DNA from: Nemertoderma westbladi
Taxonomy: Eukaryota > Animalia > Xenacoelomorpha
DNA length: 64,000 nt
Direction of reading: 5' to 3'
Assembly: GCA_032718475.1 (NCBI GenBank)
Contig: JAUCBJ010008936.1
Coordinates: 1-64,000 of the forward strand
Made by a program: the position numbers and the translations under genes. This document shows positions 4,801-45,766 of the stretch, one piece after another. The notes under the pieces were generated by a model. That model searched no databases and was not told the origin of the DNA. It saw nothing but the letters and a program-made list of their open reading frames with translations. Positions within the stretch are counted from its first letter, which is position 1, and every line of letters starts with the position of its first letter.

Positions 4801-5568
4801 ATGCGTTGGTTACCATTTAAAGCGGGATATGGGTTTTGGGCGGTAGACCCATCGCATGTTGCGTACGAGCCATATCTACAATCGCTACCACAATATCAGG
4901 AACTCATCCTAACTGCTCAAGACCTTCCACAGAACACTGGAGTTATCGTAGTCCGAGAATACTTCAGACAATTGAATATGGATAACAAGTACACCTGGAA
5001 CTTCGTTGCTATTTGCGATCGCATCACAAAGGGTGTATTTACGGAGACTAGAAAAGTGGTACGCGCGCGAGGTGATTGGAGGATGGCGGCTATTCAATAC
5101 CGCAACGAATTCTTGTTGACTCATGTGCCAGTGGGTTCATTGACCGCTGAGAGGATACAGGAACAAAGGATCGCAGCGACCACAGCGACGACCGCTGGAG
5201 CTCAAGGCTCGCGGAAAGAACCAGGAGGAGAGGTCCAAGACAAGCGTCAAGTCAAGGACGATCACTATCATTCTATTATAGAAGCACAAAGATTGCAGCG
5301 CAAGGCGCAGGGAGCGTCTGAAAAAGCGCGTGTGCAACTGCAGAAGGAAGAGTTGGTGGAAGCGACCACGGGAGCGCGACAATTGGGACGAGGCCGAGGA
5401 AGAAGCACAAGCCGGGAGTCTGTCGGGGCTCAGGGAACGTCGTCGCCGGTTCCGGGGAGTGACGCCTCACGGACGCCGTCAACGGAGTCGACTGGAGGAC
5501 GATTGGTGTATCTGGGAAGAGGGCGAAAGAGAGGAGCGAGCCCAAAGAACCCAGGAGCGGGTCGATAA
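1861..5568 (+). CDS. ORF3 of element A: DEDDy-like 3'-5' exonuclease domain, three CCHC zinc knuckles and an RG-rich tail (1235 aa)
   Basis: Exo I VMFYDNEG (~3301-3324), LPKKVREAILNQDYVKVGSGVQSD (Exo II), FVDT, Exo III-like YLVLE. Knuckles CKLCGSTRHNLKSC, CRWCNETDHSFHTC, CGYCGVKGHRSARC (~4528-4700). Motif-for-motif homology with 24249-26831. Confidence 0.8.
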   Translation: MERDIRAQPRRGFTAREEAELPFARPGCKDSNVYYHGRSVMELNGKYKPTYDKELRRERMRALGDRMEVLRREYRTRYPYDFALDVCDISADPDEEIARLYHMNMYLRHEEPLPAVRDQFDGMHLYRRTRGEDQETPKVFSVYKLFYKCGECMNKQDVAIPDRLDEQHPEPILTRCPAHQFLRYNEGGYPMSNPMISIDFSGKRPPRPITPTVTTLDPYTEIKPCSTPSLIETAAAISLYRAYKDLEARREAARDSGTKPAGLELSSPWTAFTSPHRARSLTPEHQDDIDALRQEERAAKAKELFENRIAEYNKTADRHQEETRRVTGFVPQVVSQPGPVYYSDGTEPAILVDHPESREAIRFLPMVRMADHWNVDCLREVLCAKFLRDVPMQITDYDTLDKIGAPGKESKLFGWLDKYIKVWVAVATFPDDEEVDQTWLRRKGSYTRYDDHKAIERMWTPSDEIQRQWRKTEESLQDWRVMFYDNEGGSHQECLTSKCIQIRAADGVTHVFMRVRADRERPEPIITTQYRKGKDPREQILEVCRRGGMHGAERIDARMLPKKVREAILNQDYVKVGSGVQSDLESDFNAMTDLEDRLPRPFVDTKLLLLWAQDIGIYREYPNSAKTGMGFIAHLLYNWDFKLKTQKKYEEAYGEYNTPPGAEFKSHFKRQALVYWNICAPPRASLQYYLVLESNTVTCLLADIVARVLKRHPLVFGGDQYVRSKGGIQSDVMKHFLTPFFNQSLENTSMVRRGLAIFEGVYRQNIGDLGDRPSMEYPTPEALEKWFGNQTRGFGTPFHSEAHRPVKEGWPETLVEVFGVDLPVEKTYPKRTREEILEIEDKGEDVYFVPDRQPLTGEDDIVLDIGKEGSAKPIGDLIYERAWFPQARRCKLCGSTRHNLKSCDAVVEAAHKVCRWCNETDHSFHTCTVFISQCGYCGVKGHRSARCQLRDDSFQNHSANLLREMLDKWESVADYHIQAQMRWLPFKAGYGFWAVDPSHVAYEPYLQSLPQYQELILTAQDLPQNTGVIVVREYFRQLNMDNKYTWNFVAICDRITKGVFTETRKVVRARGDWRMAAIQYRNEFLLTHVPVGSLTAERIQEQRIAATTATTAGAQGSRKEPGGEVQDKRQVKDDHYHSIIEAQRLQRKAQGASEKARVQLQKEELVEATTGARQLGRGRGRSTSRESVGAQGTSSPVPGSDASRTPSTESTGGRLVYLGRGRKRGASPKNPGAGR

Positions 5569-6067
5569 TACATTATAGCACAGGGCGACAGACTCTAGAT
5601 ATATACATCATCGTCGCTCTGATGTATATTGTAGCATTTGGAAATCTTCGACTAGACTCATATACACTAGTTGAGTTATTTTGAATTTATATTATGAGAG
5701 AGGCGAAGGAAGTGATTGGGGAGACAAACCTGCGGGTTTGGCTTACTCCTTTCACTTGCCCTAGCAAAATTTTTTATATATTTGATTTTGTATGTAGTAA
5801 TCATTATGTAGTAAGAACGAACGAGAAACAATATTTTGTAAATTTAATTTGTATGTAATAATCGTTAAACAATGAGAGAGATAATATTTTGTAAATTTAA
5901 TTTGTATGTAATTCATTATGCAATATCTATAGCAATATTTTGTAAATAGTAGGACTTATAGTATCAAGTATTTAGATTAGTTGGAAGAAATTTATTTTGT
6001 TTTGTATACATCACCTTATACTCTTCTACAATTGGAGGGAAACATTATATGATTTCCCTTGGAGCGG

Positions 6068-7951
6068 TGTTACGGTATATGGCGCTGTATCCACATTATT
6101 AGTCATTATGCAGCATGCAATATTAGTCCGTTATACTGTACGTAATATTAGTCCGTTGTGCAGCATAATATTTTAGATAAGGCATAATTACGCAATGATA
6201 TTTAGATAGGGAAATCGAAACACCCATATATTTGAATCCATCCATTTTGTATAATATGTAGCCCTACCTACGTAATTTTGTATTAGGATATATGTAGATA
6301 GTTCCAGGGTAGCAAGTTTATTCGGACCCTGGATTTTGTGCTTGCTGATATTAGCATCAATAGGGCTAGCATATAGGGACGCTGTCCTGGCCATTCAGCA
6401 GCCAGGGACGTGAACCATTACCATATATGGTAATAATTTGAGGTTTGGGCAAGCAATAAGGCTACAATCCGGCCTCCTTATTGGACTAACTGCTTCCAGG
6501 TTGGTCTAATACTAGCACGGACTGGAGAGCCAATAGGAGAGCGATTGAGTCACCCTATTGCATCACCCCATCCGGATCACCTATAAATTGGCGGTGTGCC
6601 AGTAGAGCCTTACCTGTTATTCCTCACATGATCTGCTATCACCTTTGTACTTGCTGAGCTGTCCCTATCATTTTTGACGGATATTTTAGCGTATTTTCTG
6701 CAATTTGCTAATTTTGATTAGTTTCTTGAAATGATTTGCTAGTGCGATTACTCTTGATTGTGTTTCTCAATTAATTCCTTCGATTACTGCTAATTACAAC
6801 TGAACTATGATTTCTACCTTTTGATTAATGGTTCTATGTGATTCTTTTCTGCGCAATAATCCTAAGGGATTTCTGAGACTGTCAGACTTTGTGATTTGCA
6901 TGCGCCGCTACGGTAGCTATTAGCATAATGGAGGGCTAAGGCGCCAGTGGGCGGTGGGCACATCGGGGGGTTGAGCGACGAAGGGAGAGCGGAGGATTCA
7001 AAAGCGGGCAACGCTGGCGGGGGGTCACCGTTGCGGTCGGGTAGTTAACGCTGTGGTATGCAGACCAATCGCTGGTACAGTAATTAGGGGGCTGATGATC
7101 CAGGTTTCGTCTCTATTTAGTATTAGGGGGGCAGGAATCAGGTTAGTTAGGAGTCCTATATGTACCCGGGAGAGGCCTGCACGTATCACAACGTTGAGTG
7201 TGGAGTACGAGTAGTGAATCGCATAATTGTGGGCTATACAGTAGTTAACTGCATAATTGCGAACTGTGATTGCTGACGCTGATTGGTGTGTTACTGAAGT
7301 GTGCCTATGATTGTGAATGTTTAGGTAGGCGCTCTTTTCTCTTTGATTGATTTCTATTTCTTAGTTACAACAATTAGTTACTAATTAGGTCAAAGTAATA
7401 CGGCAATTTAGGCTATTACTAGCGAAACCTGTTGCGTGATAAATTAGAATTACGTATTCTGGAACTCTTAGTAATTAGTACGCTGTTAAATATTTGTGAC
7501 TGTAATTGATTAGTAAAAATTAAGAATTAGTACGCAGCATAGCGGAGAGTAGCTAAGGTAATAATTAGAGTACTGTAAACTATTCACGCTGAGCGGTTAT
7601 TTGCATTAGCGGGCAATCAGCTAGAACGCACTATTCGGCACACACGAAACGCTAGTAATTTGCTGGCCTAAAGCCAGCTGCAGGCAAGTTTAGACCCAGA
7701 GCGGTACTATCCACGAGAGACAAATACTGTGCCATTTTGATATTTAAATATTCTCGCATTCACACATACGTTAGAGAACCCCCAGTATTCGCGATTAGAA
7801 AAGACGTAGGCAATAGCGTGCTTTAATAGTGATAAATTTAGGCGTAGGAATACTCTGAGTGCAAAGCCTCTCGCACTCGTCTTAAGTAAGCTTAGGGAGC
7901 CGACTCGGGTTTATTGTTTGGTTATTCCCGCGTGGCTCATAGATTCGAACA
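6068..7951 (+). repeat. Putative 3' LTR of element A (~1.9 kb)
   Basis: TGTT...AACA ends, purine-rich ggagcgg just upstream, ccaat (~6530) and tataaa (~6583) inside, abrupt junction with the LINE at 7951/7952. The partner LTR is not in the window. Confidence 0.6.
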
Positions 7952-10329: not shown

Positions 10330-11062
10330 CACCATGGCATATTGTGTGATTATATTCACAACTGATCCGGATCATCATATTAATGTCGAATATACTGGGG
10401 TTGTTTGCACTACGTGGCTGCAGCCAGGTCATAAAACTGTGGCTTACCCTGATTCAACCAGTGAAGTAATAGGAGTTTTTAATGATCTGATGTCTAAGCC
10501 GTTTTCAGATTTGAAATCCCCATTATTTTAAATTCTACTCTAGATGCAATAAAATACAAATTTCTTAAATTTTTAGCGAGGGTGGTTACCCCCTCCCCCC
10601 ACCCACCCCCCCCCCCCCCTTAATATACAACAAATAAGTGAATTCATTTTTTAAACAAAAAATATGCTTCAATCAGTCAAATGTACTATACATATTTGCA
10701 CATAAAATATAAAGCACTCTATCTATTATATTTAGATGAGTTACCCAAGGACAGAAATATAATTGACCTTTGTTTTAGCTAATTTTATTAACTCCGTAAA
10801 TTTCGTATGTAATGGCTCATGTAAGTCTTCCATGAGCTCCTTAATCCTCAACGATAATTCCGTTATTGCTTCGTTACATACTGTAACCACAGTAACCACT
10901 TTCTGACCAACTCGAGATACTGTTTCAACATTATTTGGGTCCATGGGAAAGCCGTAATCATCTCAGAATTTCCAACTATTAGTAGGTTTATCTTTCAGAT
11001 CAGTTGTATGAAAAATATTTTCAAGTTTATCGTAAAAATCATTGATGATGAAAGGGTTTTTT
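10330..11062 (-). mobile_element. Partial copy of a pogo/Tigger-like DNA transposon relic (inverted duplicate of 47266-47620 plus 48940-49310)
   Basis: Near-identical ORF translations at both loci (MAYCVIIFTTDP..., MDPNNVETVSRVGQKVV...), including the same poly-C tract. Confidence 0.7.
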
Positions 11063-12149
11063 ATATATACTTTTTACTTGGAGAAAAACACTTCCTGTAC
11101 GAGCCCACACTTTATACAGTGTAATAACAGTTTTATTGTAATTATATGTTACACACAGTTATTAATTAGAGACAATCACAGAATGCAATTATTAACGAGT
11201 GGGAGACACTCGTCAGAAATAGTGTTTCCACCACGGCTATTTCTCTATCCCCGCTCTCTGGGGGGAAAGAGTCAACACTGGGGCCATAATGGAAAAACTA
11301 CTTTGTCTTATCAATTATCATCTCTGCCATTCCAAGTGGCGCGGGCGGTGGCATTCTGTGATTGGCTCGCTCCTTCCTACATTACAAACCCATCACCATT
11401 AACCAAATAATAACATCACTAGTACTAGTTGGGAGATTGCCAAGATGCCCTTACTTCGATTTCCTACTTATATTATTAATATTGAATCTAAAGTCGTTAT
11501 ATTGAATGGGGCGAGCCTTAAGGTCCTTTTCAACGTTTTGAGAGAGGATAAAATTACTTTGTTGTATATATCATAATTTCTTTCGTTACAAACTCCCCCC
11601 AAAGTTAAGCTTGCTAAACTTTCAACAACAAAAAAAACAAAGAAATGATTTTGTACCAAAACTATAAAACCACCTCATGTTAGGATCAATTAAATTTAGC
11701 AATGATTATATTAGATCATCATTACGATTATCTAAGGACATGCGTAGAACATAGTCAACCACAATTATGAACAAGAATGGTGCAAAGTTGTAACATATCA
11801 ATACGGAATAACGTGAACACTGAAATAGAAACTGAGAACTGATATATCGATATCTTGTACGCTCCAGGCAGCCAGGACGGTAGAAAGGTGCCGGGATCCG
11901 AGGCTGGATAGGTTTATCCGATATGAGTAATCTGGTCGTTCAGTCATTAGATAATTCAGTAGTTAATCGTAAAACATCCAACCGCCGGGCGTACGCAATA
12001 GACAAGAACTACCCAGTCTAAAGACAGGTTTGTTATAAATTTGATAATTATAATAAAAATAGAATACTACATTTTATTACAATAATCGTTTTACATAATA
12101 TGTTTGTTAGAGGATAAAACGTAACGTTATTTCGCCACTTAATTATAGA

Positions 12150-15989: not shown

Positions 15990-18333
15990 TGCTACGCTGC
16001 TGGGTCCACTGGCACTGTGTATGGCTGACCATTTGATCTGAGGGCGCTATGCTGCTGGATCCACCGGCACTGTGTGTTACTGACCATTAGATCTGGGGGT
16101 GCTATGCTGCTGGGTCCACCGGCACTGTGTATGGCTGACCGTTAGATCTGGGGGTGCTATGCTGCTGGGTGCACCAGCACTGTGTATGACTGATCGTTAG
16201 ATCTGTGGGCGCTATGCTGCTGGGTCCACAGGCACTTTGTGTGGCTGACCGTTAGATCTGGGGGCGCTATGGTGCTGGGTGCGCCTGCACTGTGTATGGC
16301 TGACCGTTGGATCTGTGGGTGCTATGCGGCAGGGTCCACCGGCACTGTGTGTGGCTGACCCTTCGATCTGGGGGTGCTATGCTGCTGGGTCCGCCGGCAC
16401 TGTGTATGGCGGACCATTAGATCTGGGGCGCTATGCTGCTGGGTGCGCCTGCACTGTTTATGGCTGATCGTTGGATCTGTGGGCGCTATGCGGTGGGGTC
16501 CACCGGCACTGTGTGTGGCTGACCCTTAGATCTGGGGGTGCTATGTTGCTGGGTCCGCCGGTACTGTGTATGGCTGCCCGTTAGATCTGGGTGCGCTATG
16601 CTGCTGGGTCCACCGGCACTGTGTGTGGCTGACCATTAGATCTGGGGGTGCTATGCTGCTGGGTCCACCGGCACTGTGTATGGCTGACCGTTAGATCTGT
16701 GGGTGTTATGCTGCTGGGTCCGCCGGCACTGTGTGTGGCTGACCGCGGAGGGCGCTATGTTGCTGGGTCAGCTGGCACTGTGTATGGCTGATCGTTAGAT
16801 CTGTGGGCTCTATACTGCTGGGTCCGCCGGCACTGTGTATCATGGCTGACCATTAGGTCTATGGGCGCTATGCTGCTGGGTCCACCGGCACTGTGTATGG
16901 CTGACAGTTAGATCTGTGGGCGCTATGCTGCTGGGTCCGGCGGCACTGTGTATGGCTGACCATTAGGTCTGAGGGCGCTTTGCTGCTGGGTGCGCCATCA
17001 CTGTGTATGGCTGATAATTAGAATTGGGGGCGCTAGGCTGCTGGGTCCGCCAGCACTGTGTGTGGCTGACCCTTAGATCTGGGGGTGCTATGCTGCTGGG
17101 TCCGCCAGCACTGTTTATGGCTGATCGTTAGATCTGTGGGCGCTATGCTCCTGGGTCCGCCGGCACTGTGTGTGGCTGACACTTAGATCTGGGGGTGCTA
17201 TGCTGCTGGGTCTGCCGGCACTGTGTATGGCTGCCCATTAGATCTGGGTGCGCTATGCTGCTGGGTCCACCGGCCCGGCACTGTGTATGGCTGACCGTTA
17301 GATCTGTGGGCTTGATGCTGCTGGGTCCGCCAGCACTGTGTATCATGGCTGACCATTAGGTCTGTGGGCGCTATGCTGCTGGGTCCACCGGCACTGTGTA
17401 TGGCTGACAGTTAGATCTGTGGGCGCTATGCTGCTGGGTCCGCCGGCACTGTGTATGGCTGACCATTAGGTCTGAGGGCGCTATGCTGCTTCGTGCGCCG
17501 TCACTGTGTATGGCTGATAATTAGAATTGGGGGCGCTATGCTGCTGGGTCCACCGGCACTGTGTGTGGCTTACCATTAGATCTGGAGGTGCTATGCTGCT
17601 GGGTCCACCGGCACTGTGTATGGCTGACCGTTAGATCTGTGGGTGTTATGCTGCTGGGTCCGCCAGCACTGTGTATGGCTGATCGTTAGATCTGTGGTCG
17701 CTATGCTGATGGGTCCGCCGGCACTGTGTATGGCTGACCCTTAGATCTGGGGGCGCTAGGCTGCTGGGTTCACCCGCACTGTGTATGGCTGACCCTTAGA
17801 TCTGTGGGCGCTATACTGCTGGGTCCGCCGGCACTGTGTGTGGCTGATCGTTACATCTGTGGGTGCTATGCTGCTGGGTCCGCCGGCACTGTGTATGGCT
17901 GACCATTAGGTCTGAGGGCGCTATGCTGCTGGGTGCGCCGGCACTCTCTATGGCTGACCATTAGATCTGAGGGCGCTATGCTGCTGGGTGCGCCGGCACT
18001 GTGTGTGGCTGACCATTAGGTCTGAGGGCTCTATGCTGCTGGGTGCGCCTGCACTGTGTATGGCTGACCATTAGATCTGTGGGTGCTATGCTGCTGAGTC
18101 CACCAGCACTGTGTATGGCTGATCGTTACATCTGTGGGCGCTATGCTGCTGGGTGCGCCGGCACTGTGTATGGCTGACCATTAGATCTGTGGGTGCTATG
18201 CTGCTGAGTCCGCCAGCACTGTGTATGGCTGATCGTTACATCTGTGGGCGCTATGCTGCTGGGTGCGCCGGCACTGTGTATGGCTGACCATTACATCTGG
18301 GGGCGCTAGACTGCTGGGTCCGCCGGCACTGTG
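15990..18333. repeat. 55-bp minisatellite, roughly 42 copies
   Basis: Unit gctatgctgctgggtccgccggcactgtgtatggctgaccattagatctgtgggc repeated head to tail with point variants. Confidence 0.97.
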
Positions 18334-21519: not shown

Positions 21520-24082
21520 TTTCGGACCCAGATTGCCACGTGGTTGACGAGCGGCTGGGAAAATCGGAGACTCTTGTTTAGAGAACAGATCCGATATTGC
21601 TCAGTCCGTTTCCAACCGCGCCTTTCTGGTTCTGGAATTTGTGGAGCAAATGACGTCACCACGGACACCACGGTATGATACAGAGGACGTACATGACTGC
21701 ATACAGGGGGTGATGACTGTACCATGTGATGAGGCTCTGTTCCAATGGCAAAATTACACGACACCGGACAGGGGGTTGGACCAGTACCACAATTACAGTT
21801 TGCCATTTGGGAATGACGCCTTTTACTGAACTTAAAACTGACAAAACACTGTGTAGGGACTTTAGTTAGGATACTTTGTGATTCCTCGCTGACTCACCGA
21901 ACTTTACACTAATAGATAGGAACCTGACAGCCAAGACGTTACTGACAGAGGTGATGGGGGATCTAAAAACATGGGTTAAACACAAACTGACACATTCAAC
22001 AGACAAATTAATTCAGGTCAAACTGACTGAACTCAATGTACCGAAGACAGATGGGGTGTTCCATTTTTTTTGTCATGCTTTATTCCTGTTCCATATATAA
22101 CACAATTAGTCATTGGTTTATTATTGGTCATTAGTCTATACAGTTTTCTGTTATAAACAAATTAGACTTAATAACATATTAGTATATTATTTACAACAGT
22201 TATTTTTTTGATTAAACAACGTAGTAAGTAGTTCAAGTAGTATAGCACATTTCATCGTGACATGAATAAACAACGGTTAACTTAATCTCACCATACGAGC
22301 TGTTAACAACCTGTGAACTATAAGTACAGGTACAGAAATCGTCATACATTAAAATGGTAAAAACACATTTTCATTTTTAAGTTATTCATATTCGTTCGTT
22401 TTATTATTATACTATTATTTTGGTTTAGAAAGACAGCTGCAAAGTGCAAATTAAGTGTTTTACAAAGTTCCCATCCACTTTGCTATATTATTTTTGTTGC
22501 CGTTATCCCTACACCAGGGGGAAAAACGCCGATGCTGGAGACGTGACTTAACAGACCACCGAGCCCCGGCCAGTCACCGGATATTGATTGTGGGGAGGGA
22601 ATATTTTCTGAGATGCAAGTTTGCGGTTGATAAAAAGCTGCATTAGTTGGATATACTCTTTAATGTAACTTCTTATAGTTGAAACCTGATTAAGAATAAT
22701 TTTGGGCTTCCCCAAATCAATATACACCAAATATTCACAATAATTATACACGATAATATAAATCCCTACGGTATATTATTTAATAACCCACTGTTCGCTC
22801 AGAATTTTAGCCTACCTAATGTTCCCCAGATTTTCCCTCGGTCCCAGTCTTAGTGCCGTAGTGTCGGTGTCGGTCGACCCTGTCGCGTGTCCGTTCCACC
22901 CCTCACGAACCCCGAAGGGAACGATCATCGAGAACCAGCACGGCTTGGCTAAGGGTCGGTCCAGTCGGTAGACTCTGTCGCGTATCCGTACCACCCCTCT
23001 CGAACCCCGAAGGGTTCGGTTATCGAGAACCAGTACGGCTTGGCTAGGAGTCTGTCGTGTCGGTGGACCCGTTCGCGTGTCCGTTCCACCCCTCACGAAC
23101 CCCGAAGGGTTCGATCATCGAGAACCAGAACGGCTTGGCTAGGGGTCCGTCGGTTCATCACAGAAACCCAACCACCTAGGCTTTCCGAGTCCGTTTCAGG
23201 CTCGTAGTCGCTTCGGCAGCCGAGAAACTGCTCCGAACAGTCGGTAGGCCAGTAGAGTCTAGTCGAGTCTAGTCCTTTGTCTTTCGACCCCATCGCGTGT
23301 CCGTTCCACCCCTCACGGACCCCGAAGGGTTCGATCATCGAGAACCAGTACGGCTTGGCTAAGGGGTCTGTCGTCGGTTCCCGTCGCAAATCCCAGTACA
23401 AGCAGTCAGCGTTCCGAGTTCTTTTCAGTCTCGTAGTAGCTGCCGTTGACCAGAGACCGCTAAGGGCAGTTCTCGTCAAACCCGTCCTGTGGCCAGCCCT
23501 TTCGCATGTCCGTCCCACCCCTCACGAACCCCGAAGGGATCGGTCATCGAGAACCAGTACGGCTTAGGTCAGGGGGCAGTCGTTAGTTGGCCACCCGTTC
23601 GCGTGTCCGCTCCACCCCTCACGAACCCCGGGGTTCGATCATCGAGAACCAGAACGGCTTGGCTACTAAGGGGCCGTCGGTGCCCGTCGCAAATCCCTGA
23701 CACAAGCAGTCAGCGGTCCGAGTTCTTTTCAGTCTCGTAATGGCTGCTGTTGGCCAGGGACCGCTAAGGGCAGTCCTTGTCCTTTAGGCCTGGCGCATTA
23801 CCAAATCCACCCCTACAGGCAGCAGGAAGTTGGCCAGGGCCTAATAGTACTCAGGCTAACCTGAATACTGCTTGCATTTTCCATCCCCCCTGGCCCTTAT
23901 AACTATGAAATTATTCCCGTACCCTGTAAGTTGCCCCAAAGTTCGCCCATAAATCGCCCCCAGTTTATTGAATGTGCCCAAAACCCATGGTCCCGCACCC
24001 AGTAGCAATATCGGAATAATCAATTTTAATAAAATACAAAAATATTCAACTCGCGTTATGGAAAGTTGAAATACCGCAAACA
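21520..24082 (-). repeat. Putative 3' LTR of element B (~2.5 kb), containing the structured repeat array
   Basis: Starts TGTT right after a G-run PPT; TATA-like gttataag at ~23896-23903 (-). The distal end is uncertain because there is no clean AACA terminus. Confidence 0.5.
22876..23785 (-). ncRNA. Array of six ~82-nt structured RNA units (A1-A6) interspersed with three copies of a second structured unit (B1-B3)
   Basis: A units at 22876-22957, 22971-23052, 23065-23148, 23286-23368, 23496-23577 and 23589-23675. On the minus strand A1-A5 have a c(UUCG)g tetraloop (lost in A6). Closing stems covary (gaccc/gggtc vs gactc/gagtc; ccgtac/gtacgg vs ccgttc/gaacgg). Confidence 0.65.
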
Positions 24083-24248
24083 GTCCCCCCCAATGACCTT
24101 CGTGAAGTCTGTCGGTCGATTGAGTTTGCGTAGGTCATTCCCAATATAAAAAACCCAAATTTAATATTGCATAGTTTTTTAATTAATTTGGCCTAGAGTT
24201 TGTATAAAAATAAATGTTCGATAAATGTTCCTGGAATATCCCAATCCA

Positions 24249-26831
24249 CTATTTCTTTTTCTGGTAAGCCTTTCGTCTCTTCGCCCGTCGACTCTCATCG
24301 ATCGCTATGGCTGGTAGAGGAGCGTCAACATCCATTGTGAGTAACACTTCGGCTTGTCTCCTGGCGGCTCTTCCTTTCGAAGGCATCGGGATCATGTCGG
24401 TTCGTCTTTCCTCTAGGAACCATTCTCCGTCACCGAACTCCTCTTTATACGAGTATAATCGTCTAATAACTTCGAATGGGCCGAATAATCCAGCGCTCAG
24501 TAGCAGATCCACGTAATGGAAAGGTAGCGTGGCCGACGTGTGGAGGCGTTCCGGGAAGGAGAAATATCCGCACGCCATCTCCTGCGCGATATTCCGAGCG
24601 TTTCTCCGAAACTTGGTCTTTAAGTGGCTGTTTGCGTATGTCTCAAACATGACCATATTGCCCATAGCGGTTACGTCTTTGGTAGGACATTTGATATAGC
24701 AGCGGGGGCTAGCGGAATGTCCACGGAAACCGCACGTGGTGCAGAGGTTATAAAGGATCGGACAGACCGAAACGTCGTGGCCCGATATCGCGCAGTATGG
24801 GCAATAGAGTATCCCGAGGAGCTGGAGGCAAGAATCGGTAACCCGATTCCTTCTGCCGCGTGGGCACTGCTCCGAGCCGCAGTCGCCGCATACCTCCAAC
24901 TGCGTTTCTCGACCGGGGAATATCGGAATCGGGACGCCGACGTAGTATTCGAGTCGTCGGTCGCTCTTCGGAATATTCTCGGTGGTCGGTAGCCCGCGGA
25001 ATGCTAGGCTTTTGCGTAGTATGTTCTCGCTCCGATAACCCTCTTTGTGTCCCGCTGGTCTCAACTCGGATGACCGTTTCTGGCGGTGGATCCATTCAGT
25101 TTGCTCGGCGTACCAACGGGTTAGTCGCATAGGGTCCTGAGGAACGGCGGGTGTAGTAGCCACCGCTGGTCGGCGAAGAGGTGCCGGGGTTTTCGACGGG
25201 GGGATACCGAGGAGATCGTCGGGTGTCGGCGCATCGCTGGGGCCTTCCTCGACCAGTATCGCTGAGCGGGTCCGTTGGTGGCTGGTACTCGGAATCTCCG
25301 ACGACCAATCTTCGCCGCCCGGGAAAGGATACGGGGATAACCGTTGGCATATGTCGCCGAAGTCGCTCAATGCAGCTGTAGTGGCTACCTCTCTCGCGGG
25401 GCTACCGGAGCCGCGTGGGGTGTAGACGCCTGCTCTCTTCATCGGTTCGGCCGAGGCAACCCGTTTGGCGGCCGGTCCGTACGCGGCCTCCGGCTCGAGT
25501 TGTCGCTTCGGGGTGGAGAGTAGAACACCCTCGTTTAGCCATATCTCTTCCCCTTCCGAAGAGATCAGAGGCTCCTCCGCACCGAGAAGTTCGGTAATCG
25601 TAGGAATGTCGTAAGGTCCGCTCTCGTCCCAGGAATCGATAACGGCGGGCGTTTTCGATTCTCCCGGTGTAATGTTCTCGACCGCTTTAAACGCATGGTT
25701 TATAACCTCGTTCCAGTCGTAGTCGACGAAGGAAAGGGGGACCGCCGTAATAAGGTTATCGAGAGTTCTACAGATAAACTTAGCGACGGTGTAGCACTCC
25801 ATAACGACGTAGATATAGCTCCGTCGATCGGGATTCTCCCACCTTTGGTGTATCGTCCACTTCCGATCGACGTCCTTCCATCGACCCTCTCGCTCGCTCT
25901 TTATCTCTAATCCCGGGTTTCCGCCGTATATTTTATTATAGTCCCGGTATTTCTGGGGTTTGAAGTCGATACCGCCGTTTAGCACAGCGAGGTAGCCGAT
26001 CCCGGATTTCGTCGGTCTCACTTCTTGGAATCCTCGCATGAATTCGGCGAATCTTAACCAGGCTAGCAGCGTTTGAGTGTCGATGCAATGGCTAAGTGCG
26101 TTGAGGTCGTTTCGTCGGTTTCTTCCTGCGGGAGCGTTCGCGTAGTCGTTCCGGACGTCCGCCTTGATATCCGACCCGATTTTAATGACGTCGAAGTCGA
26201 AGAGGATCTTTTGGATTTCCGGAGGCAGCAACCAGATCGCTCCGGCTGCCCGCACTTCCTGTCTGGGTGTCGGGAATATTTGGCACACCAGTACCAAACC
26301 GTCCAGGGTTCCGAGGACGATGACTAAGGATCGACCGTATTCTTTCGCCCCGTACTTTTCCTGGTAGTCGTCGCGGTTTTGGATAATCGATACGCGTTCC
26401 TCTCGAAGCGTCGCCGTACACTCTGACAGGTTTCCCCAGTGGGCGAGGTACGTACTCTTGTCGTCGACGAAACTTTGACATCTCACCAACGTAATCGCTT
26501 CCGAGGTGGGCGTCGCGTTTCCCTCGTTGTCGTAGATCAAACATCGGGATCTGTAGACGCTCTGCCAGAACGTTTCCCAAAACGACGAATCGTCCCCTCC
26601 GGTTGCCTTTGCGTTCCGAGTTCTTTTCAGTCTCGTACTAGCATCGGCTAACCGGAGGGCTTGTAGATTCTTAGAATCCGGTCCCTCTCGCCCGGTGAAT
26701 TTAATGACTCGCACGTTCTCATTTAGCAGGGTGCTCCAATTTGTATCAAAGTCAGGGGATCCGGGTTGCGAATATTCCAGTAGATCTATCGTGTTACGTA
26801 ATTCGCCGATAATTTGGCGATTTGGGTCCAT
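24249..26831 (-). CDS. ORF3 of element B: DEDDy-like 3'-5' exonuclease domain plus zinc knuckles (860 aa)
   Basis: CLIYDNEG, LPPEIQKILFDFDVIKIGSDIKAD, CIDT, KSGIGYLA...DFK, YVVME; CGDCGSEQC, CPYCAISGHDVSVC, CTTCGFRGHSASPRC. Homologous to 1861-5568. Confidence 0.8.
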   Translation of the reverse strand: MDPNRQIIGELRNTIDLLEYSQPGSPDFDTNWSTLLNENVRVIKFTGREGPDSKNLQALRLADASTRLKRTRNAKATGGDDSSFWETFWQSVYRSRCLIYDNEGNATPTSEAITLVRCQSFVDDKSTYLAHWGNLSECTATLREERVSIIQNRDDYQEKYGAKEYGRSLVIVLGTLDGLVLVCQIFPTPRQEVRAAGAIWLLPPEIQKILFDFDVIKIGSDIKADVRNDYANAPAGRNRRNDLNALSHCIDTQTLLAWLRFAEFMRGFQEVRPTKSGIGYLAVLNGGIDFKPQKYRDYNKIYGGNPGLEIKSEREGRWKDVDRKWTIHQRWENPDRRSYIYVVMECYTVAKFICRTLDNLITAVPLSFVDYDWNEVINHAFKAVENITPGESKTPAVIDSWDESGPYDIPTITELLGAEEPLISSEGEEIWLNEGVLLSTPKRQLEPEAAYGPAAKRVASAEPMKRAGVYTPRGSGSPAREVATTAALSDFGDICQRLSPYPFPGGEDWSSEIPSTSHQRTRSAILVEEGPSDAPTPDDLLGIPPSKTPAPLRRPAVATTPAVPQDPMRLTRWYAEQTEWIHRQKRSSELRPAGHKEGYRSENILRKSLAFRGLPTTENIPKSDRRLEYYVGVPIPIFPGRETQLEVCGDCGSEQCPRGRRNRVTDSCLQLLGILYCPYCAISGHDVSVCPILYNLCTTCGFRGHSASPRCYIKCPTKDVTAMGNMVMFETYANSHLKTKFRRNARNIAQEMACGYFSFPERLHTSATLPFHYVDLLLSAGLFGPFEVIRRLYSYKEEFGDGEWFLEERRTDMIPMPSKGRAARRQAEVLLTMDVDAPLPAIAIDESRRAKRRKAYQKKK

Positions 26832-27388
26832 ATTTACGATTATATCCGTTACAAATTAGATCAGTTAATTATAAGTCCAGAAAGTCTGAAACTATAGCGA
26901 TAGCAGAATAATTCAGTTTTTATTTAATTCAGTTTATCAAATAATATTGCTATATAGACATCTATCATCTTATTGCTAATACATTCAGCATTTACAGTTA
27001 CTATAGCTATACATAATATCCAACCAGTTTTTTTATGACTTTTTTGTCCTTTCTTTTTTCCAATTCTTTTCTTTGACCTTTTTTATGCCTTTTTTTTTGT
27101 CTTTTTTCATTTCATTATTATTTCATCTCATTTCATTTATTTCCACATATATTTCAACATTTAGTTCCACCATTTATTTCACATTTATTTATTTCCACAT
27201 CATCATTGGGTTTATAGCCCCCCGGCTATCATCATTTGTTATAAGCGCAGCACCATGGTGCGCATCATTTCATTTTCATCAGCATACGCGTCATCATTCA
27301 AGTTTATAGTAGAGTTGTCTGATCCTTTTCATCATTTCCAACTATATTCAATCATTTTCTTTGGTTAATCTTTGTCGTGGAAGGGGTG

Positions 27389-27798
27389 TTACGCGGCAAT
27401 CTGGGATCTACAGCTGGACTCGTTACACCGCCTACGCCCCAAACTGCGCACGTAATGGACAATGACGACGCTGGGAGTGAAGTCACGTGGATGCACCATG
27501 GACCCACCAGAATAACACTCCCAACAACATAAAGCTCAGTCGACGAAGTCATGTGGGATGGGGTTACGCAACATTCTGGGATCTACAGCTGGACTCGTTA
27601 CACCGCCTACGCCCCAAAATCCACGTAACGGTCCCACCAGAATAACGCGACTGAGAAACATAAAACCCTCTATCGTCGAAGTCACGTGGATGCACCATGG
27701 ACCCACCAGAATAACGGGATAGAGGGGGTGTTGCGCGGCAATCCGGGATCTACAGCTGGACTCATTACACCGCCTACGCCCCGAACTGCGCACGCAAC
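27389..27798 (-). ncRNA. Modular structured RNA repeats (three X hairpins, three Y hairpins, one X nested in a Y) in the pol-ORF3 spacer of element B
   Basis: X at 27389-27455, 27563-27629, 27730-27798; Y at 27472-27523, 27535-27655, 27666-27726. Cores are nearly invariant while the closing stems differ in sequence but stay complementary; G-U pairs favour the minus strand. Confidence 0.65.
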
Positions 27799-28078
27799 GG
27801 ACAACATAACATACTGCAATGAATACAATGAATTCCACTTCAAATCTTTTCCATTTCCAATAATCCAATATCGTTGGTCCCAATGACCAAAATCAGGGTA
27901 AACAATACATAAACGACCCTGCGTCAGCCGAAACATCTGCAGGGTGATGCTGGACTCCACATAACACACGAGGAAACACAAATACCATTGCGTGGTTACA
28001 GTTGGTTTAAAGGGGGTCCATAATTCGTTGTCGATAAATCACAGTTTTATAAGAGTTTGTCAACATGATGAGAAGGGT

Positions 28079-31000
28079 TTACACGGTTTTGTAATTGTCA
28101 CCAATGTCTGCAGCAGGATCCGTAGTAGGGAACTTATCACCTCTTGTAGAATCACCACTGTCATTGCCTTCAAGAAGGCACAGCTTCTGGATAGGGCGTT
28201 GGTAGTGGCCCTTTGCCGTTCGTATCGTCACAGTCCTCGCAAGTCCGTCTTTGCTTGGGTGTATGGTCACGACCCGCGCCACAGGCCAGTGAACGCGGTC
28301 TTTGAGATCTTCTTTAACTAGTACCATGTCGCCAACTGCGAAATTCCGGTAGGTGTTGTTCCATTTCCTCCTGGTCCGGAGGGTTATGAGGTACTCCTGG
28401 GCCCAAATTCTCCACCAATGCGCTGCCAACGCTTGGGCCTTTTTCCAGTTTGTATGTTTCGCGATCTCGTTGGGATCCGGGAACATGGTTTCCGGGAGGA
28501 GGTGGGTTTTGGGTCTCCCCAGTAAGTGGTTAGGAGTGAGGGGTTCCAGGTCTGTGGGGTCGTCGCGGATAGGAACAATGGGTCGGTTGTTCAGGGTAGC
28601 CGTGATCTCGCAGAATGTTGTGCGGAGGGTGTCATGGGTTACCCGGGTATCGCCTAGAGCGACGCGCATGGATCGTTTCACTAGGTCGATCAGTTTCTCC
28701 CATACCCCGCTCGTATGGGGTGCTAAGGGGGTCAGGAAGTGCCACTGTATCTGGTGTTCCTTCCAGACTTGGGATGCAGTGTTATTGGTAAACCATCCCT
28801 CAATCGCCTCTCTAAGTTCTCTTTCTCCTCCCACGAAGTTTGTACCATTATCGGAATACATGTGGCGGCATGTCCCGTTGTTCGCCACGAACCGACGCAG
28901 AGCGTTGATGAATGCGTGTTGTGTCAGATTTACCACGATATCTAAGTAAATTGCCCTAGACCTTAGGCAGGTGAAGATGGCTCCCCAGCATTTGATGTTG
29001 GATCGTCGTTCAATAACTGTGAACGGTCCGAAACAGTCCACTCCGGTGACGTAGAATGGCGGGGAATCCGCTTGTAGACGGGTGGCTGGTAAGTCGGCCA
29101 TCTTTTGGGTGATTGGTGGCGCTAGGTAACGTCTGCAGGTGAAGCAACGTTTCAACACTTTCCGGATCAGTGGCTGGATGTGAGTGATCCAATATCTTTG
29201 TCTTATATTAGCTATAATCCAATTCTGTCCTGCGTGGTGGTTGTCCTCGTGACATTGTAGAATTAATAGCTTAGCTAGTGTCGACGTTCCGGGCAGAAGC
29301 GCCGGGTATTTAACCTCATATTCGACCGGGGCGTTTGCCATCCGGGTATTCAGTCGGATCAGTCCGTCCTCTCCCATCATTGGTCTCAGTTGGTAGACTG
29401 GGCTGTCCGGTTTCAATGTTTTGCCCGCACTAAGTTGTTCCCATTCATCGGGGAAACTTTCTTTCTGGACATATCTAACAATACACTTCTCCGCGATAAT
29501 AAGTTCTTGTATATTCCGTTGAACTATCGGTTTGCTGTTTTTCCACCGTAGGAAGTTACGAAGGGTTATAACGTGGTGGACGAGCCGTCTCATGGATGAA
29601 GTTCGCTCGATCAACCGATGTAAAGACGCCGCTAGTTGAGTGATCGTCGCGACGTTATAGTGCCTGCCCGAGTCCTTTGCAGGCTCAGTCAGGCAACTAT
29701 AAATTTCCACCGCGTTGCTTCGATGGATTTTACGGATCTCTTTATCGTCCTCGGAGTATTTTCCACTATCGAGTTCGGGGTCGAATCGGGTACTCCATGT
29801 TAACTGTGGCTGCCGTAGGAATTCCGGGCCTGTAAGCCAGAGTTTACTTTTACCGAGTTGTTTTGGGGTGGCGCCTCGGCTTGATAAGTCCGCTGGGTTT
29901 TCCTTCCCGTTCACGTGATGCCACTGTTCTCGGCCGGTACACTGTTTAATCTCTGTGGCTCGGTTTGCAACAAACGTGGTGTGACGCCGTGATGGAGAGT
30001 GGAGATAATAGAGAACTATACTCGAATCTACCCAGAAGTGTTGAGATTCTATGGGGATCCGTAGGTTCCGCATGGCCATGCGATTCTGTCTTACTGCCCA
30101 AACTGCAGCTTGTAGCTCGAGTCTTGGAATCGTTGCTACGAATTCCCCGGATACTGTCTTTGCTTTGGAGAATAAGAAGCTTGTATCGCCGTTTCCATCG
30201 CTACTTAGTCTCCGTAAGAAGGTTACTACGCCGATTCCGGTATTTGAAGCATCCGAAAAGGTGTGGAGCTGGAAGATATCGGTGGGCAGTTTATCGAGGA
30301 AGAACGGTCTAGGTATCCGCATAAGATGTAGGTGTTCGAGCTGCTCCGTCCATTTTCTCCATTTGACGCTAAGGTATGGGGGAAGCTCTTCGTCCCATTC
30401 CAGTCCTTCTATCCACATTTCCTTAATCAGGTTCATTCCGGCCAAGGTTACTGGAGATATGAAATTTAGTGGGTCGAAGATTGCACTTTTTATCGACAAA
30501 CATCCCCTTTTTGTCATAGGCTTGGGTAGGGGTTTATATTTGAAGATGAATTCATCTGATTCTATGTCCCATTCAATCCCGAGTACACGATGTTCCACAT
30601 CCTCCGAATACATCTTGTTATTTTCCAGCCGGATGTCCTCCGGAAACTTTTCCATAAGTGTTTTGTCGTGGGATCTGAACTTCACGAGTGGAAACCCTCC
30701 TTTCTTTAGACATTCTACCATCCCCATTGCTAGCTGATACGCCTCATCTACATTATCCGCGCCGGCGCATCCGTCGTCCACGTAGAAGCATCGTCGAATG
30801 GTTTCTATGACGGTTGGAGGGAACTCGTTTTCGCACATGGTTGCCGTCCTCTTTAGCATGTCACTGCATGCTACCGGCGAGTCCTTAGCGCCGAAGATCC
30901 TGACGACCATACGCATTACGTCTACGTCCTTTATCGTGAGTTGGCTAATCTCCTGTTGAGTAAGCGTTTTATCCGTCCATAGGATACGTAGACAGTCCGA

Positions 31001-32878
31001 GTCTCTTGGTAATGTACGAACTTGATGAAACATGGCCTTGATGTCACAGGTGAATGCTACCCGGTTTTCCCTGAACCTGATCAATACGCCGATGAGTGTG
31101 CTATATATGTTGGGTCCCGTATAAAGTTGACTGTTTAGGGATTCGCCCTGGTACATAGCGGCAGCATCATTTACCACTCGGATTTTCCCGCCTTTGCGGG
31201 CTTCTACTACATAGTGGGTCGGGAGATAATATGTTCTTTTACCACCTTGCAGTTCGTTCCGTGGTACCATTTCTGCTAATCCATCATCGAGATATCCTTG
31301 GATTACGGTATTATACTTCTCCTTTATCTCGGGTTGGTCATTCAGCCGGCGTAGAATCCCTTTAAGTCGCCTAAGTGCCATGCTGGCGTTGTTTGCCATT
31401 GGTTTGTTTGGGTCCTTCCATAACATAGGTGAACACCAATGTCCGTCTTTAAACGTGGCCTGGTCGAGAACGTCCATACAATATTGGTCCTCTTCGGATG
31501 GGTTTTCGTCCTTTTCTGCGAACTCCTGGGTCTCCAAATTAAAATATTTCGTCATTTCTCGTTGGGTTTTCTCGGTTTCCAGGAACAAATCCTCGTCAAG
31601 ATCCGAAGCTGAGCAATAACCCACAGAGGTTACATTCTCTTTAATCTGACATTTAGGAAGGTAGGTATAGGTGTCCGTAGTTTCCTCCTTAATGCCGCAG
31701 AGTGTCCATCCCATTATTGTTCGTTCAGCATAAAATCCATCATCCTGGTTTATAGATCGAGCGATATCTCCGGTGGGGATGTGTAGTTCCGGTGTATCAA
31801 GTCCGATCAGTAGGGTGATACGGTTCACGTCCAACTGCGGACACCTCAGGTCTACATCGTCTCGGTCCAATTGTATGAGGGGGGCGTACTCGGCTGATTG
31901 TCGGAACCGCACCCGGAGGTCTGTGTGTACCAAGGCGTTCTTGATGGTTAACTTAGCCGTTTCGTAGCCCTTCATCACTCCTTCCATCTGGAGTTGCACC
32001 TCCCCGGACTCTACTTCTTTGTTATCGGTGATGGTTTGTATGGGCCGTTTACAAGGTTCATATTCTAGGCCGAGTTGCTCGAGGAAATCCCGGTCGATGA
32101 TGGTTCCGTCGGACCCGTTATCGAGGAACGCGAGTGTCGTCAAAGATTTGCCGACTCCTTGGATCCTTACTGGGATCACCTTTGCGAAGACCATGTAGCG
32201 GCGATTTATAAGATTAATCGTGGCCGAAATATTGGTTACTTGTGGTGTATCGGTGTAGATTTTAAACGGGTTGGTTTCTCTCCGTTGGGTTGTCCGGGTC
32301 CCTTTGAAGACGTGGTTTGTTTCTCCTCTTCGCCTGGCTTCGATCCGAAAGGGGAGGGTAGTAAAATCGAAGTTCGCGGGGATGTGGAGGAGCGTGTGAT
32401 GGCGTTGGTCGTTACAGACAGCACAGCATGATCTTTGGTCGCACTCCCGAACATAGTGACCTGTTCCAAGACACCGGAAGCATCCTCGGTGTTTCATTAT
32501 CGCCTCGAAGCGTGGGACGAGTTCGGCGAACTGAAACTTTCTGCAGAATTCCACTTTGTGTTTCTCCCCACAGAAGAGACAGAGCAGGGAATTTGCGATG
32601 CCTTCTCTTTCGGGTGCCCAACTCGCGAGATAACATGCCCATTCCTCAGCGGATGTCGGTTCCTCGTAGTCTTCGTCGTCGGAATCCTCGGCCATGGTAA
32701 TGGCCATCGTACTTACCGGTGGGGGGCGGAATCTCGGTTTCGGAGGGGTTATCTTACTCCTGGAGTTGCTCTCTATTCCGTCCAACTTTGCGAGACTTTG
32801 TTTTGAAAACATCGAGTCATTCATGGCTTCGGAGATATCGTCCAGGAATGCCGACATTTCAAGGAAGCTAGGTTCACG
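28079..32878 (-). CDS. pol: BEL/Pao Gag C-terminus (three Zn motifs), aspartic protease, RT, RNase H and integrase
   Basis: CLFCGEKH/CFRCLGTGH/CAVC...HHTLLH, FLDNGS, FYVDD, HTFSDAS, TIPRLEL, GVDCFGP, YSDNGTNFVG. The frame is open upstream of the Met at 32857 (REPSFLE) up to the breakpoint at ~32879. Confidence 0.96.
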   Translation of the reverse strand, partial: REPSFLEMSAFLDDISEAMNDSMFSKQSLAKLDGIESNSRSKITPPKPRFRPPPVSTMAITMAEDSDDEDYEEPTSAEEWACYLASWAPEREGIANSLLCLFCGEKHKVEFCRKFQFAELVPRFEAIMKHRGCFRCLGTGHYVRECDQRSCCAVCNDQRHHTLLHIPANFDFTTLPFRIEARRRGETNHVFKGTRTTQRRETNPFKIYTDTPQVTNISATINLINRRYMVFAKVIPVRIQGVGKSLTTLAFLDNGSDGTIIDRDFLEQLGLEYEPCKRPIQTITDNKEVESGEVQLQMEGVMKGYETAKLTIKNALVHTDLRVRFRQSAEYAPLIQLDRDDVDLRCPQLDVNRITLLIGLDTPELHIPTGDIARSINQDDGFYAERTIMGWTLCGIKEETTDTYTYLPKCQIKENVTSVGYCSASDLDEDLFLETEKTQREMTKYFNLETQEFAEKDENPSEEDQYCMDVLDQATFKDGHWCSPMLWKDPNKPMANNASMALRRLKGILRRLNDQPEIKEKYNTVIQGYLDDGLAEMVPRNELQGGKRTYYLPTHYVVEARKGGKIRVVNDAAAMYQGESLNSQLYTGPNIYSTLIGVLIRFRENRVAFTCDIKAMFHQVRTLPRDSDCLRILWTDKTLTQQEISQLTIKDVDVMRMVVRIFGAKDSPVACSDMLKRTATMCENEFPPTVIETIRRCFYVDDGCAGADNVDEAYQLAMGMVECLKKGGFPLVKFRSHDKTLMEKFPEDIRLENNKMYSEDVEHRVLGIEWDIESDEFIFKYKPLPKPMTKRGCLSIKSAIFDPLNFISPVTLAGMNLIKEMWIEGLEWDEELPPYLSVKWRKWTEQLEHLHLMRIPRPFFLDKLPTDIFQLHTFSDASNTGIGVVTFLRRLSSDGNGDTSFLFSKAKTVSGEFVATIPRLELQAAVWAVRQNRMAMRNLRIPIESQHFWVDSSIVLYYLHSPSRRHTTFVANRATEIKQCTGREQWHHVNGKENPADLSSRGATPKQLGKSKLWLTGPEFLRQPQLTWSTRFDPELDSGKYSEDDKEIRKIHRSNAVEIYSCLTEPAKDSGRHYNVATITQLAASLHRLIERTSSMRRLVHHVITLRNFLRWKNSKPIVQRNIQELIIAEKCIVRYVQKESFPDEWEQLSAGKTLKPDSPVYQLRPMMGEDGLIRLNTRMANAPVEYEVKYPALLPGTSTLAKLLILQCHEDNHHAGQNWIIANIRQRYWITHIQPLIRKVLKRCFTCRRYLAPPITQKMADLPATRLQADSPPFYVTGVDCFGPFTVIERRSNIKCWGAIFTCLRSRAIYLDIVVNLTQHAFINALRRFVANNGTCRHMYSDNGTNFVGGERELREAIEGWFTNNTASQVWKEHQIQWHFLTPLAPHTSGVWEKLIDLVKRSMRVALGDTRVTHDTLRTTFCEITATLNNRPIVPIRDDPTDLEPLTPNHLLGRPKTHLLPETMFPDPNEIAKHTNWKKAQALAAHWWRIWAQEYLITLRTRRKWNNTYRNFAVGDMVLVKEDLKDRVHWPVARVVTIHPSKDGLARTVTIRTAKGHYQRPIQKLCLLEGNDSGDSTRGDKFPTTDPAADIGDNYKTV

Positions 32879-32879
32879 T

Positions 32880-34757
32880 CAGAAGTCGCTCGACAACAGC
32901 AAGAATTCTGCCGACAACGACGAGAAATGGAGGAACAAGCTCAACTTCTAGTGATGCAGGCAGCAGTAGAGGAAGAGAAGCTACGCGTTGCGAATATAGT
33001 GAGAATCTCTCATCTACAGGAACAAGCTGAATTAGAAGCAGCTGAAGTAGAAAGGTTAGAGGTAGACATTGCCCGACAAGCGGCAGCGGCAGCGGCCGAG
33101 TCAGAGCGACAAGCGGCAGCGGCGGAATTAGAACGAGACAGGTTAGTTTCGGAAGCACGGGCCGAAATGAAAACACGGCAAATAAAAGCTCAATCCGCTA
33201 TACGACAAGCAGAGTTTGAGGCGCAACAACGACAAACGGAACAACGAGAGAAGACAGCTAAACTTCATTTCGAACTCGAGAAGAAGGCGAGAGAATTAGC
33301 GAACGCTGAGGAAGATCTGGATCAAAAGGCCCGCGATCGATCGATGAGATCTCGAGACGGACATGACTTGGACCAGATAGAGGTAAGACATCGCCAAATT
33401 CAGGAACGAAAGAAGGAAGGAAGCGTAGGAGCACCCGGACGGGAACGACAATTAGTAAAAGACTTGTGTCAACGATTCCCACAGGTAACTCATATGTTTG
33501 CACCGGTTACGACTAAGGAACCTGTTTCGATTGCGGGTAGTAGTAACATTTCTCCTATCCATGGTGCGACGGAACACAGGTTTGTTATTCCGGACGAGTT
33601 TACACCGCCAAGAGCAACGTCGTCGCCTATTCCGAGGGTCAAGGTAAGTAACCCACCGATTACAGATCGTAGTAGTTTATTGACCGGACCTGCACTACTG
33701 ACGACAAAACAGGTGAGTCCACCGTCGACACCTAAACCCATTACACACTACGCTTACCCAATGACGTTTCGACCAACAAGGCCTTTGGATTCAAATGCTG
33801 TCATTCGCCCACCGATTCAGTTTACATCGCAATCTACGACTTCGAGGAAGACTTGTGAGCCTACCGAACAACGGAGAACAGTGGAGACGCGACCATTCAA
33901 CCAGTTTACATCGCAATCTACGACTTCGAGGAAGACTTGTGAGCCTACCGAACAACGGAGAACAGTGGAGACGCGACCATTCAACCAATTTACATCGCAA
34001 TCTACGACTTCGAGGAAGACTTGTGAGCCTACCGAACAACGGAGAACAGTGGAGACGCGACCATTCAACCAATTTACATCGCAATCTACGACTTCGAGGA
34101 AGACTTGTGAGCCTACCGAACAACGGAGATCAGTGGACGATGTTCCGAAACGGAATGTTAGAATTCGTACGACGCAACGGACGCGAGCACGTCGACCACC
34201 ATATCCGGATGATAGTAGTACTTCGAGCGAATCGGATTACCCGAAACGCGAGGTATTTAGAACAGGGGCGGCCGATGAATATAAACGCGAGCGTTCAGAC
34301 AACTCCTTTGCAGACAATCCTCCACAGACTACACCAACACAGAAGGCGTTACAACCAACGGACGCAATTAGTACACAACAGTTCGCCGACATCCTGCGAC
34401 CAGTTGTCAATAAGTTGGCTCAGATCGAGGAACGTCTGGAGGAAGGTTACACCGACAGTTCGAGAAATTCCGAATTCGAACACAATAGACACCCGAAGGA
34501 ACCACAAAGACCGGTACCTTCAAACCCCACATCGTATCAGGGAAAAGCGCCAAGAAGGGATATCAACAAGGTTACCAACCAAGGACGCGAAACTCTGAAC
34601 GTTGCCGAGGAGATAGCGAAATTCGCAGCCAGACAAGGATTGCCGGTACAACAACCACCGAAGTTTTCAGGTAGCTCAAAACACTGGCATACTTTCGTAG
34701 ACTATATCGAATCCCAGATCGCCGTGTGCGCCTTTACATCACGGGAGAAGTTCAATT
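32880..34757 (+). pseudogene. gag: N-terminal half of a BEL/Pao gag, inverted relative to the adjacent pol
   Basis: Coiled-coil region, Pro/Ser/Thr-rich linker and PPKFSGSSKHWHTF (start of the BEL capsid-like domain). The frame is open from ~32880; gag similarity appears to end at REKFNF. Confidence 0.8.
33818..34138 (+). repeat. 84-bp in-frame tandem repeat (~3.8 copies) inside gag
   Basis: 28-aa unit QFTSQSTTSRKTCEPTEQRRTVETRPFN with near-identical DNA. Confidence 0.95.
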
Positions 34758-45738: not shown

Positions 45739-45766
45739 TAAGTCCGACGCTAGAGGGACACCTAAG

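Follow-up and report, generated by a model that had tools for sequence, protein, structure and literature searches.

The DNA analysed here, referred to as the window, comprises 64 kb of the xenacoelomorph Nemertoderma westbladi (assembly GCA_032718475.1, contig JAUCBJ010008936.1, positions 1-64,000, forward strand). On the minus strand of the window lies a Bel/Pao LTR retrotransposon, element 1, in which a Pfam search identified a Pao peptidase A17 together with DUF5641 within one gag-pol frame. Its main features are as follows.

22495-23883 (-): 3' LTR, TG...CA, 1389 nt; ends read from the sequence, with a contig joint to 22495, loose contig ends at 22488 and a step in depth
23884-23898 (-): polypurine tract, adjoining the LTR, read from the sequence
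24249-26831 (-): ORF3, 860 aa; DEDDy-like exonuclease region at about residues 100-350, linker, tandem CCHC knuckles at about 648-712, basic C-terminal tail
28079-32878 (-): Bel/Pao gag end and pol frame; Pfam Peptidase_A17 (E 1e-37) and DUF5641 (E 2e-29)
32873-34757 (+): 5' part of a gag-like frame, inverted relative to pol in this copy; loose contig ends at 32872 and 34757

Of the LTRs of element 1, the window holds the 3' copy only and no 5' LTR. In the two deepest of four public runs, contig depth over the element was about 100 times that of its flanks, a depth that is not itself a copy number, and we therefore regard element 1 as a multi-copy family. The inverted gag segment (32873-34757) carries an 84-nt tandem repeat at 33821-34137, and contigs depart from the window sequence at both of its breakpoints. 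Within the LTR, the minus strand has ATTAAA at 22784 and at 22664, both predicted poly(A) signals.

A second Bel/Pao family, element 2, occupies the left end of the window on the plus strand and is described below. Elsewhere, we noted a gypsy-like LTR element at 52166-57301, with 241-nt LTRs that are 99% identical, a tandem array at 15991-18333 in which a 55-nt unit recurs about 42 times, one repeat in two inverted copies 96-98% alike (10332-11064 and 47265-49311), and, at 43472-46535 (-), pieces of a frame resembling a helicase and containing a GxxGTGKT motif, which we take to be probably part of a Helitron-type or similar element.

A hairpin tip shared by ORF3 and the LTR

The original prediction had drawn attention to a 32-nt match between ORF3 and an array in the LTR, and this match proved to be real. 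With the ORF3 tip at 26611-26642 (-), which spans ORF3 codons 64-74, taken as the reference, the LTR holds three copies in the same orientation: A2 at 23409-23440 (31/32 identical), A3 at 23713-23744 (29/32, or 26/27 over 23713-23739) and A1 at 23180-23211 (26/32). When 32-mers starting at 23950-34727 were compared with 22800-23900, identity away from the tip site reached at most 22/32 on either strand, and blastn gave E = 3e-9. A screen for 14-mers, carried out without any preset pattern, identified the tips as the only long runs that coding and non-coding sequence have in common within either element: they accounted for all 36 matches of the element-1 ORF3 and for 12 of the 14 of the element-2 ORF3, while three scattered matches fell in the pol of element 1, one in its gag and none in the pol end of element 2. 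The gypsy-like element at 52166-57301, screened as a control, contained no 14-mer common to its coding part and its 3' end.

Read on the minus (sense) strand, all four tips display the predicted arrangement of GC, an internal loop, CGAG, a GAAA-containing loop, CUCG, GA and GC. A structural descriptor that includes the outer two pairs was matched in full at four of ten candidate sites in the 64 kb, and these four sites are the tips. The internal loop had in addition been read as a loop E/sarcin-ricin motif, which we assume to be defined as AGUA/GAA with a conserved bulged G. AGUA is present in the ORF3 copy only, the other three copies having ACUA, ACUA and AUUA, and its G varies among family contigs, including one ORF3 contig; because the bulged G is thus found in one of four copies and is variable, we have dropped this label. 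What is constant in all copies of the tip is UA/GA.

Within the window, neither pol (4.8 kb) nor gag (1.9 kb) of element 1 was found to contain a copy of the tip. These copy counts cover the window only; the 5' ends of both Bel/Pao elements lie outside it and could hold further tips. A comparison with Rfam yielded no match at gathering score and none below E 0.7, the best value being E 0.73 both for 22400-28100 and for 1093-7900. Separately, a 20-nt pattern led to one metagenome locus (L001), the flanks of which are unrelated, so that we took it as a chance hit.

The flanks of the tips had been described as unrelated, and in sequence they are: between ORF3 and LTR copies, the 5' arms are identical at 9-12 of 24 positions and the 3' arms at 5-6 of 24. 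That description had missed, though, that the flanks of each copy pair with each other, so that each of the four 32-nt tips caps a predicted hairpin of 65-80 nt.

26595-26659 (-): ORF3 hairpin, 65 nt, 22 predicted pairs, tip 26611-26642; z = -6.4, 0/200 shuffles
23692-23762 (-): LTR hairpin H3, tip A3; z = -4.0 as sense RNA, 0/1000 flank shuffles
23386-23460 (-): LTR hairpin H2, tip A2, the weakest stem; z = -1.5, 60/1000 flank shuffles
23156-23235 (-): LTR hairpin H1, tip A1; z = -2.1, 31/1000 flank shuffles

Of 84 windows in ORF3, the one with its hairpin is the most stable. In synonymous controls, in which the tip and the protein were fixed and the flanking codons randomised, stem energies averaged -19.1 +/- 3.3 kcal/mol as compared with -34.7 kcal/mol for the actual stem, a value reached by 0 of 2000 controls; codon choice therefore does not explain the stem within ORF3. 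Exchanging arms between the ORF3 and LTR copies led to a loss of 8-18 kcal/mol relative to the ORF3 hairpin. Furthermore, it is only as sense RNA that all four copies form the full hairpin: as DNA or antisense, the hairpins of ORF3 and A3 also fold, while those of A1 and A2 do not. We consider it highly probable that the tips and their stems are under selection as RNA structures.

The same strand preference, together with G-U pairing, points to RNA and away from a DNA-level element, in which the tips would represent a U3 enhancer site with an internal copy, or else a patch of homology for strand transfer. Repeats in U3 are often enhancers, and contigs in two runs join 23441 to 26606 at low depth. 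The sides of this joint measure 29 nt, however, and it may be a mapping artefact; moreover, strand transfer depends on R being present at both ends and not on a copy in ORF3. Such DNA-level readings are in our judgement highly improbable.

The LTR array is made up of two interleaved hairpin units, three H and six K. From the positions of the two ATTAAA signals, it probably sits in U3 of element 1, and would therefore form part of the 3' end of the element's RNAs. Two more classes of repeated hairpin lie between pol and ORF3, giving four classes altogether in element 1.

22871-23675 (-): hairpin unit K, about 91 nt, six copies, interleaved with H1 and H2; UUCG loop in five of the six
22871-22961, 22966-23056, 23061-23151, 23281-23371, 23490-23580, 23587-23675 (-): the K copies, from repeat and fold analysis
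27380-27462, 27555-27637, 27722-27804 (-): repeated hairpin class between pol and ORF3
27479-27516, 27678-27715 (-): repeated hairpin class between pol and ORF3

In the K units, 90% of cells are paired (8/500 shuffles) and four pairs are changed on both sides (41/500 shuffles). They contain GAUGAU opposite UGAG, which is compatible with either a kink-turn or a 5-nt bulge. We made the former reading by eye, against what we take to be the kink-turn consensus; since the predicted fold prefers the 5-nt bulge and K2 breaks the register, a kink-turn is not claimed. An 886-nt contig from X6 links 22921 directly to 23636 and represents an element copy without most of the array, and further contig joints inside the array suggest that the number of units is variable.

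Imperfect hairpins of 65-80 nt clustered in an LTR, within an element that holds four hairpin classes, could also be viewed as precursors of small RNAs or as decoys for host RNA-silencing or dsRNA-binding proteins. In miRNA precursors, however, it is usually the arms that are conserved and not the loop, which is the reverse of the pattern here, the copies run in the sense of the mRNA, so that no guide pairing would result, and the Rfam comparison gives this reading no match either. We regard it as very unlikely and, on the grounds of sense and of a conserved loop rather than conserved arms, reject an antisense guide and see no support for the self-derived guide that had been suggested.

A second Bel/Pao family and the ORF3 proteins

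Element 2 lacks the tip of element 1. In its place, it possesses an unrelated hairpin tip of its own, 16 nt long with a YGYG loop (UGCG in one of the four), which is again present in four copies distributed in and around an ORF3.

1-1092 (+): pol end of element 2 (Bel/Pao)
1517-1532 (+): tip copy 1, in the gap between pol and ORF3
1861-5568 (+): ORF3 of element 2, 1235 aa; 26% identity to the element-1 ORF3 over 174 aa (E 5e-11), plus the knuckle region
2634-2649 (+): tip copy 2, ORF3 coding sequence, N-terminal extension; stem reached in 16/2000 synonymous controls
4228-4243 (+): tip copy 3, ORF3 linker, in a frame different from that of copy 2; stem reached in 379/2000 synonymous controls, not beyond controls
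5725-5740 (+): tip copy 4, 157 nt 3' of the ORF3 stop

Allowing up to two mismatches, this tip was found nowhere else in the 64 kb and in none of 300 shuffles, using a pattern defined from the same four copies. When the flanks were shuffled, the four stems were reached in 23, 41, 193 and 253 of 1000 cases, so that two of the four are not beyond controls; the stems carry a net 2-nt 3' bulge. A stem in coding sequence that is not a product of chance is accompanied, in a second family of the same window, by the same layout with a different tip. We also observed a very stable hairpin at 1093-1172 (+), directly after the pol stop of element 2 (z = -7.6, 20 shuffles), and a branch-point-like CTAAC with a CAG at 1780-1800 (+), just 5' of ORF3. 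The latter is a possible splice acceptor; if it is used, the tip at 1517 would be found in unspliced RNA only.

The ORF3 of element 1 reached no Pfam family, and an Atlas search returned PF01612, a 3'-5' exonuclease family, as a lead (0.92, 161 of 256 features). Among 1.84 billion representatives, two homologues of ORF3 were recovered (P0001 and P0002), both of them single-member clusters, and P0001 shows the same layout as ORF3 and a faint match to PF01612 (E 0.2). Comparison of ORF3, or of the four-sequence alignment, with about 8000 candidates each, within length limits, yielded no homologue, and related loci were absent from the metagenome, viral and prokaryote contigs searched. The motifs YDNE, D...D and Y..V.E are common to both ORF3s of the window, and by eye we take them to be the acidic residues of Exo I, II and III; the Exo I columns align uncleanly with P0001 and P0002. 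Two AlphaFold models were of low confidence (pLDDT 32 and 37). The exonuclease identity of ORF3 is therefore treated here as a lead only. A profile of the ORF3 family matched the knuckles of retroviral nucleocapsids (best E 3e-4) and, only weakly, Lin28 (E 0.03). A basic tail, resembling a nuclear localisation signal or an arginine-rich motif, ends three of the four ORF3-family proteins (24249-24290 (-), 5520-5568 (+) and P0001). All three coding copies of the tips, counting both elements, lie outside the conserved ORF3 domains.

Variation among family contigs

Contigs of the four public runs were aligned to 26555-26700, and places varying at 2% or more were counted. Ten such places were found, seven of which lie within the 65-nt ORF3 hairpin, where the density of variants is not reduced. 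Of these seven, four lie among the 21 unpaired sites and three among the 44 paired ones, a difference that is not significant (p = 0.20). The conservation of synonymous sites in the tip and hairpin codons of ORF3, which had been put forward as a check, is likewise seen as a trend only, with 2 of 13 third positions varying at paired sites as against 3 of 9 at unpaired sites. Two of the three paired variants affect the last two (basal) base pairs, which are broken by variants at 1-5%. The third adjoins a bulge, and a neighbour of that bulge varies at a similar depth; if these two changes are linked, the bulge would shift and the helix would be kept. None of the listed variants falls in CGAG/CUCG, in UA/GAA or in the inner 8-bp helix; in the whole-element contig comparison, 40 of about 1230 variant places are listed.

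One X4 contig is 82% identical to the window over 26098-26669. An ORF3 contig from X6, a single record of depth 3 that reaches 26988, combines three changes in the tip, all of which equal the LTR copy A1. Two of the three alter an amino acid, and two of them in combination replace A.A by a C-G pair. Variation at these three places amounts to 10-33% in the two deep runs, in allele shares that are mixed because contigs from the LTR copies also align there.

These data bear on the alternative that the original prediction had itself named as its refutation, namely that the 32 nt were transferred between ORF3 and the LTR by a single, neutral template switch. Reverse transcriptase switches templates, the 31/32 identity looks recent, and variant density shows no overall drop. 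Against this, independent paired stems surround each tip, two tip states exist and both are present in ORF3 and in the LTR, and a second family has the same layout. Since the stem within ORF3 is not driven by codon choice, the tip states are shared with A1, and element 2 repeats the arrangement, we consider a one-off switch to be largely refuted and assign it a very low probability.

Candidate readers of the tags and known systems

The stems, the shared tip states and the second family support the central element of the original prediction, that one RNA recognition element is present both in ORF3 and, in three copies, in the LTR; that interpretation as a whole is partly supported. We tentatively propose that the 32-nt tip is a selected, family-specific RNA tag bound by a zinc-knuckle protein of the element, most likely ORF3. 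Judging from the sequences, the tags are probably read by some protein that the element encodes, and the chance that this protein is ORF3 appears to be a little short of even. The unrelated tips of two families in one host are as would be expected of an element-encoded partner.

Under this proposal, the LTR tags, given a U3 location, would lie in the 3' untranslated end of element RNAs, some 0.5-1.1 kb 5' of the predicted poly(A) signal. By engaging several tags simultaneously, ORF3 would act on the element's own RNA only, either by trimming or protecting the 3' end through its exonuclease-like domain or by handing the RNA over to export or assembly. The tag in the coding sequence would place ORF3's own message under the same control. 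The tips may stay alike through selection and occasional copying between sites, while the stems would drift and re-pair. A broader form of the idea, which we hold to be doubtful, is that a clade of Bel/Pao elements carries a self-contained address module, in which an exonuclease/zinc-knuckle ORF3 and a family-specific tip, present in several copies in the ORF3 coding sequence and in 3' non-coding RNA, form an orthogonal co-evolving pair, such that each nuclease processes or protects its own transcripts only.

The tips could instead serve packaging or dimerisation as dispersed signals, recognised by the nucleocapsid of Gag rather than by ORF3. Gag has CCHC knuckles and is also family-specific, and the available portions of the literature describe RNA viruses with multiple dispersed signals that share a recognition motif (PMC6281560) and scattered sites suspected for Ty elements (PMC4974528). 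However, pol and gag are free of tips in the window, most copies would also be found in the ORF3 message and hence would not single out the genome, and the packaging region mapped in Ty1 lies at the 5' end, according to the accessible part of PMC4974528. We therefore see Gag as an unlikely reader.

Recruitment of a host export or transport factor, whether in the manner of CTE and NXF1, of the RSV direct repeats or of germ-line zipcodes read by Egalitarian-BicD, seems to us rather unlikely too. The direct repeats of RSV lie on either side of its extra gene src and influence RNA in the cytoplasm (PMC3856414, in the part available), and in the available part of PMC13186709, Egl is described as binding bent stem-loops, two of which are needed per RNA, with one target in the I-factor coding sequence; the net 2-nt 3' bulge of the element-2 stems may fit such a signal. 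An Egl-type signal is a bent stem that has a 3' bulge and, at two sites separated by 8 bp, U-A pairs; in the same part of that source, Egl reads shape and the two U-A pairs and no conserved loop sequence. The stems here, by contrast, are GC-rich, and two families in one host have unrelated tips.

Should ORF3 prove to read the tags, the target of a retrotransposon nuclease would be known, as would the way in which families within one genome distinguish their RNAs. The two neighbouring families, with a tip and an ORF3 each, allow the specificity for own versus foreign tips, and of ORF3 versus Gag, to be compared. In the literature consulted, which leaves aside most subscription papers and Repbase, we found no report for Bel/Pao elements of such tags, of cis signals or of this ORF3.

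Several known systems share parts of this layout. The localisation elements of yeast ASH1 are reportedly located in coding sequence. As in ASH1 (PMC4117797, available part) and in the targets of Egl-BicD, such as the I-factor ILS, which are spread over coding sequence and 3' UTR (PMC13186709, available part), there are several stem-loops per RNA that would be read together; in the Egl-BicD case the reader is a host protein that recognises shape, whereas here a family-specific tip sequence is conserved. Rev and the RRE, Rev-like export, the RSV direct repeats and the MPMV CTE likewise combine a structured cis element with an accessory viral or host protein (putative in our case), and the direct repeats of RSV also flank an extra gene; as far as the available part of PMC3856414 describes them, those systems rely on a single large element or on a pair of long direct repeats, unlike the four small tips on unrelated stems seen here. 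The CCHC knuckle of RSV NC binds the UGCG tetraloop of muPsi, a pairing of knuckle and loop that recalls the one UGCG among the four loops of element 2, although muPsi is a single 5' packaging site and the tip of element 1 has another loop (PMC8833184, in the part at hand). The dispersed packaging signals of ssRNA viruses, as set out in the available part of PMC6281560, resemble the tips in comprising several stem-loops with one recognition motif, some of them within coding sequence, and differ in that the four tips here are near-identical and confined to the ORF3/LTR module, with none in pol. The bdelloid LTR retrotransposons Juno and Vesta have a non-env ORF3 after pol that is DEDDy-like with a changed acidic motif, and for which a role in 3'-end processing of element RNA has been suggested; the accessible text of the source (PMC5408684) gives no known substrate or role for the exonuclease ORF3s of LTR retrotransposons. 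Element 1 matches them in the position of its ORF3 after pol, its non-env nature and its DEDDy-like domain, the last as a lead only, whereas Juno and Vesta are not Bel/Pao elements, have no repeated RNA hairpins reported in the available part of PMC5408684, and are set apart from the ORF3 described here by its tandem CCHC knuckles.
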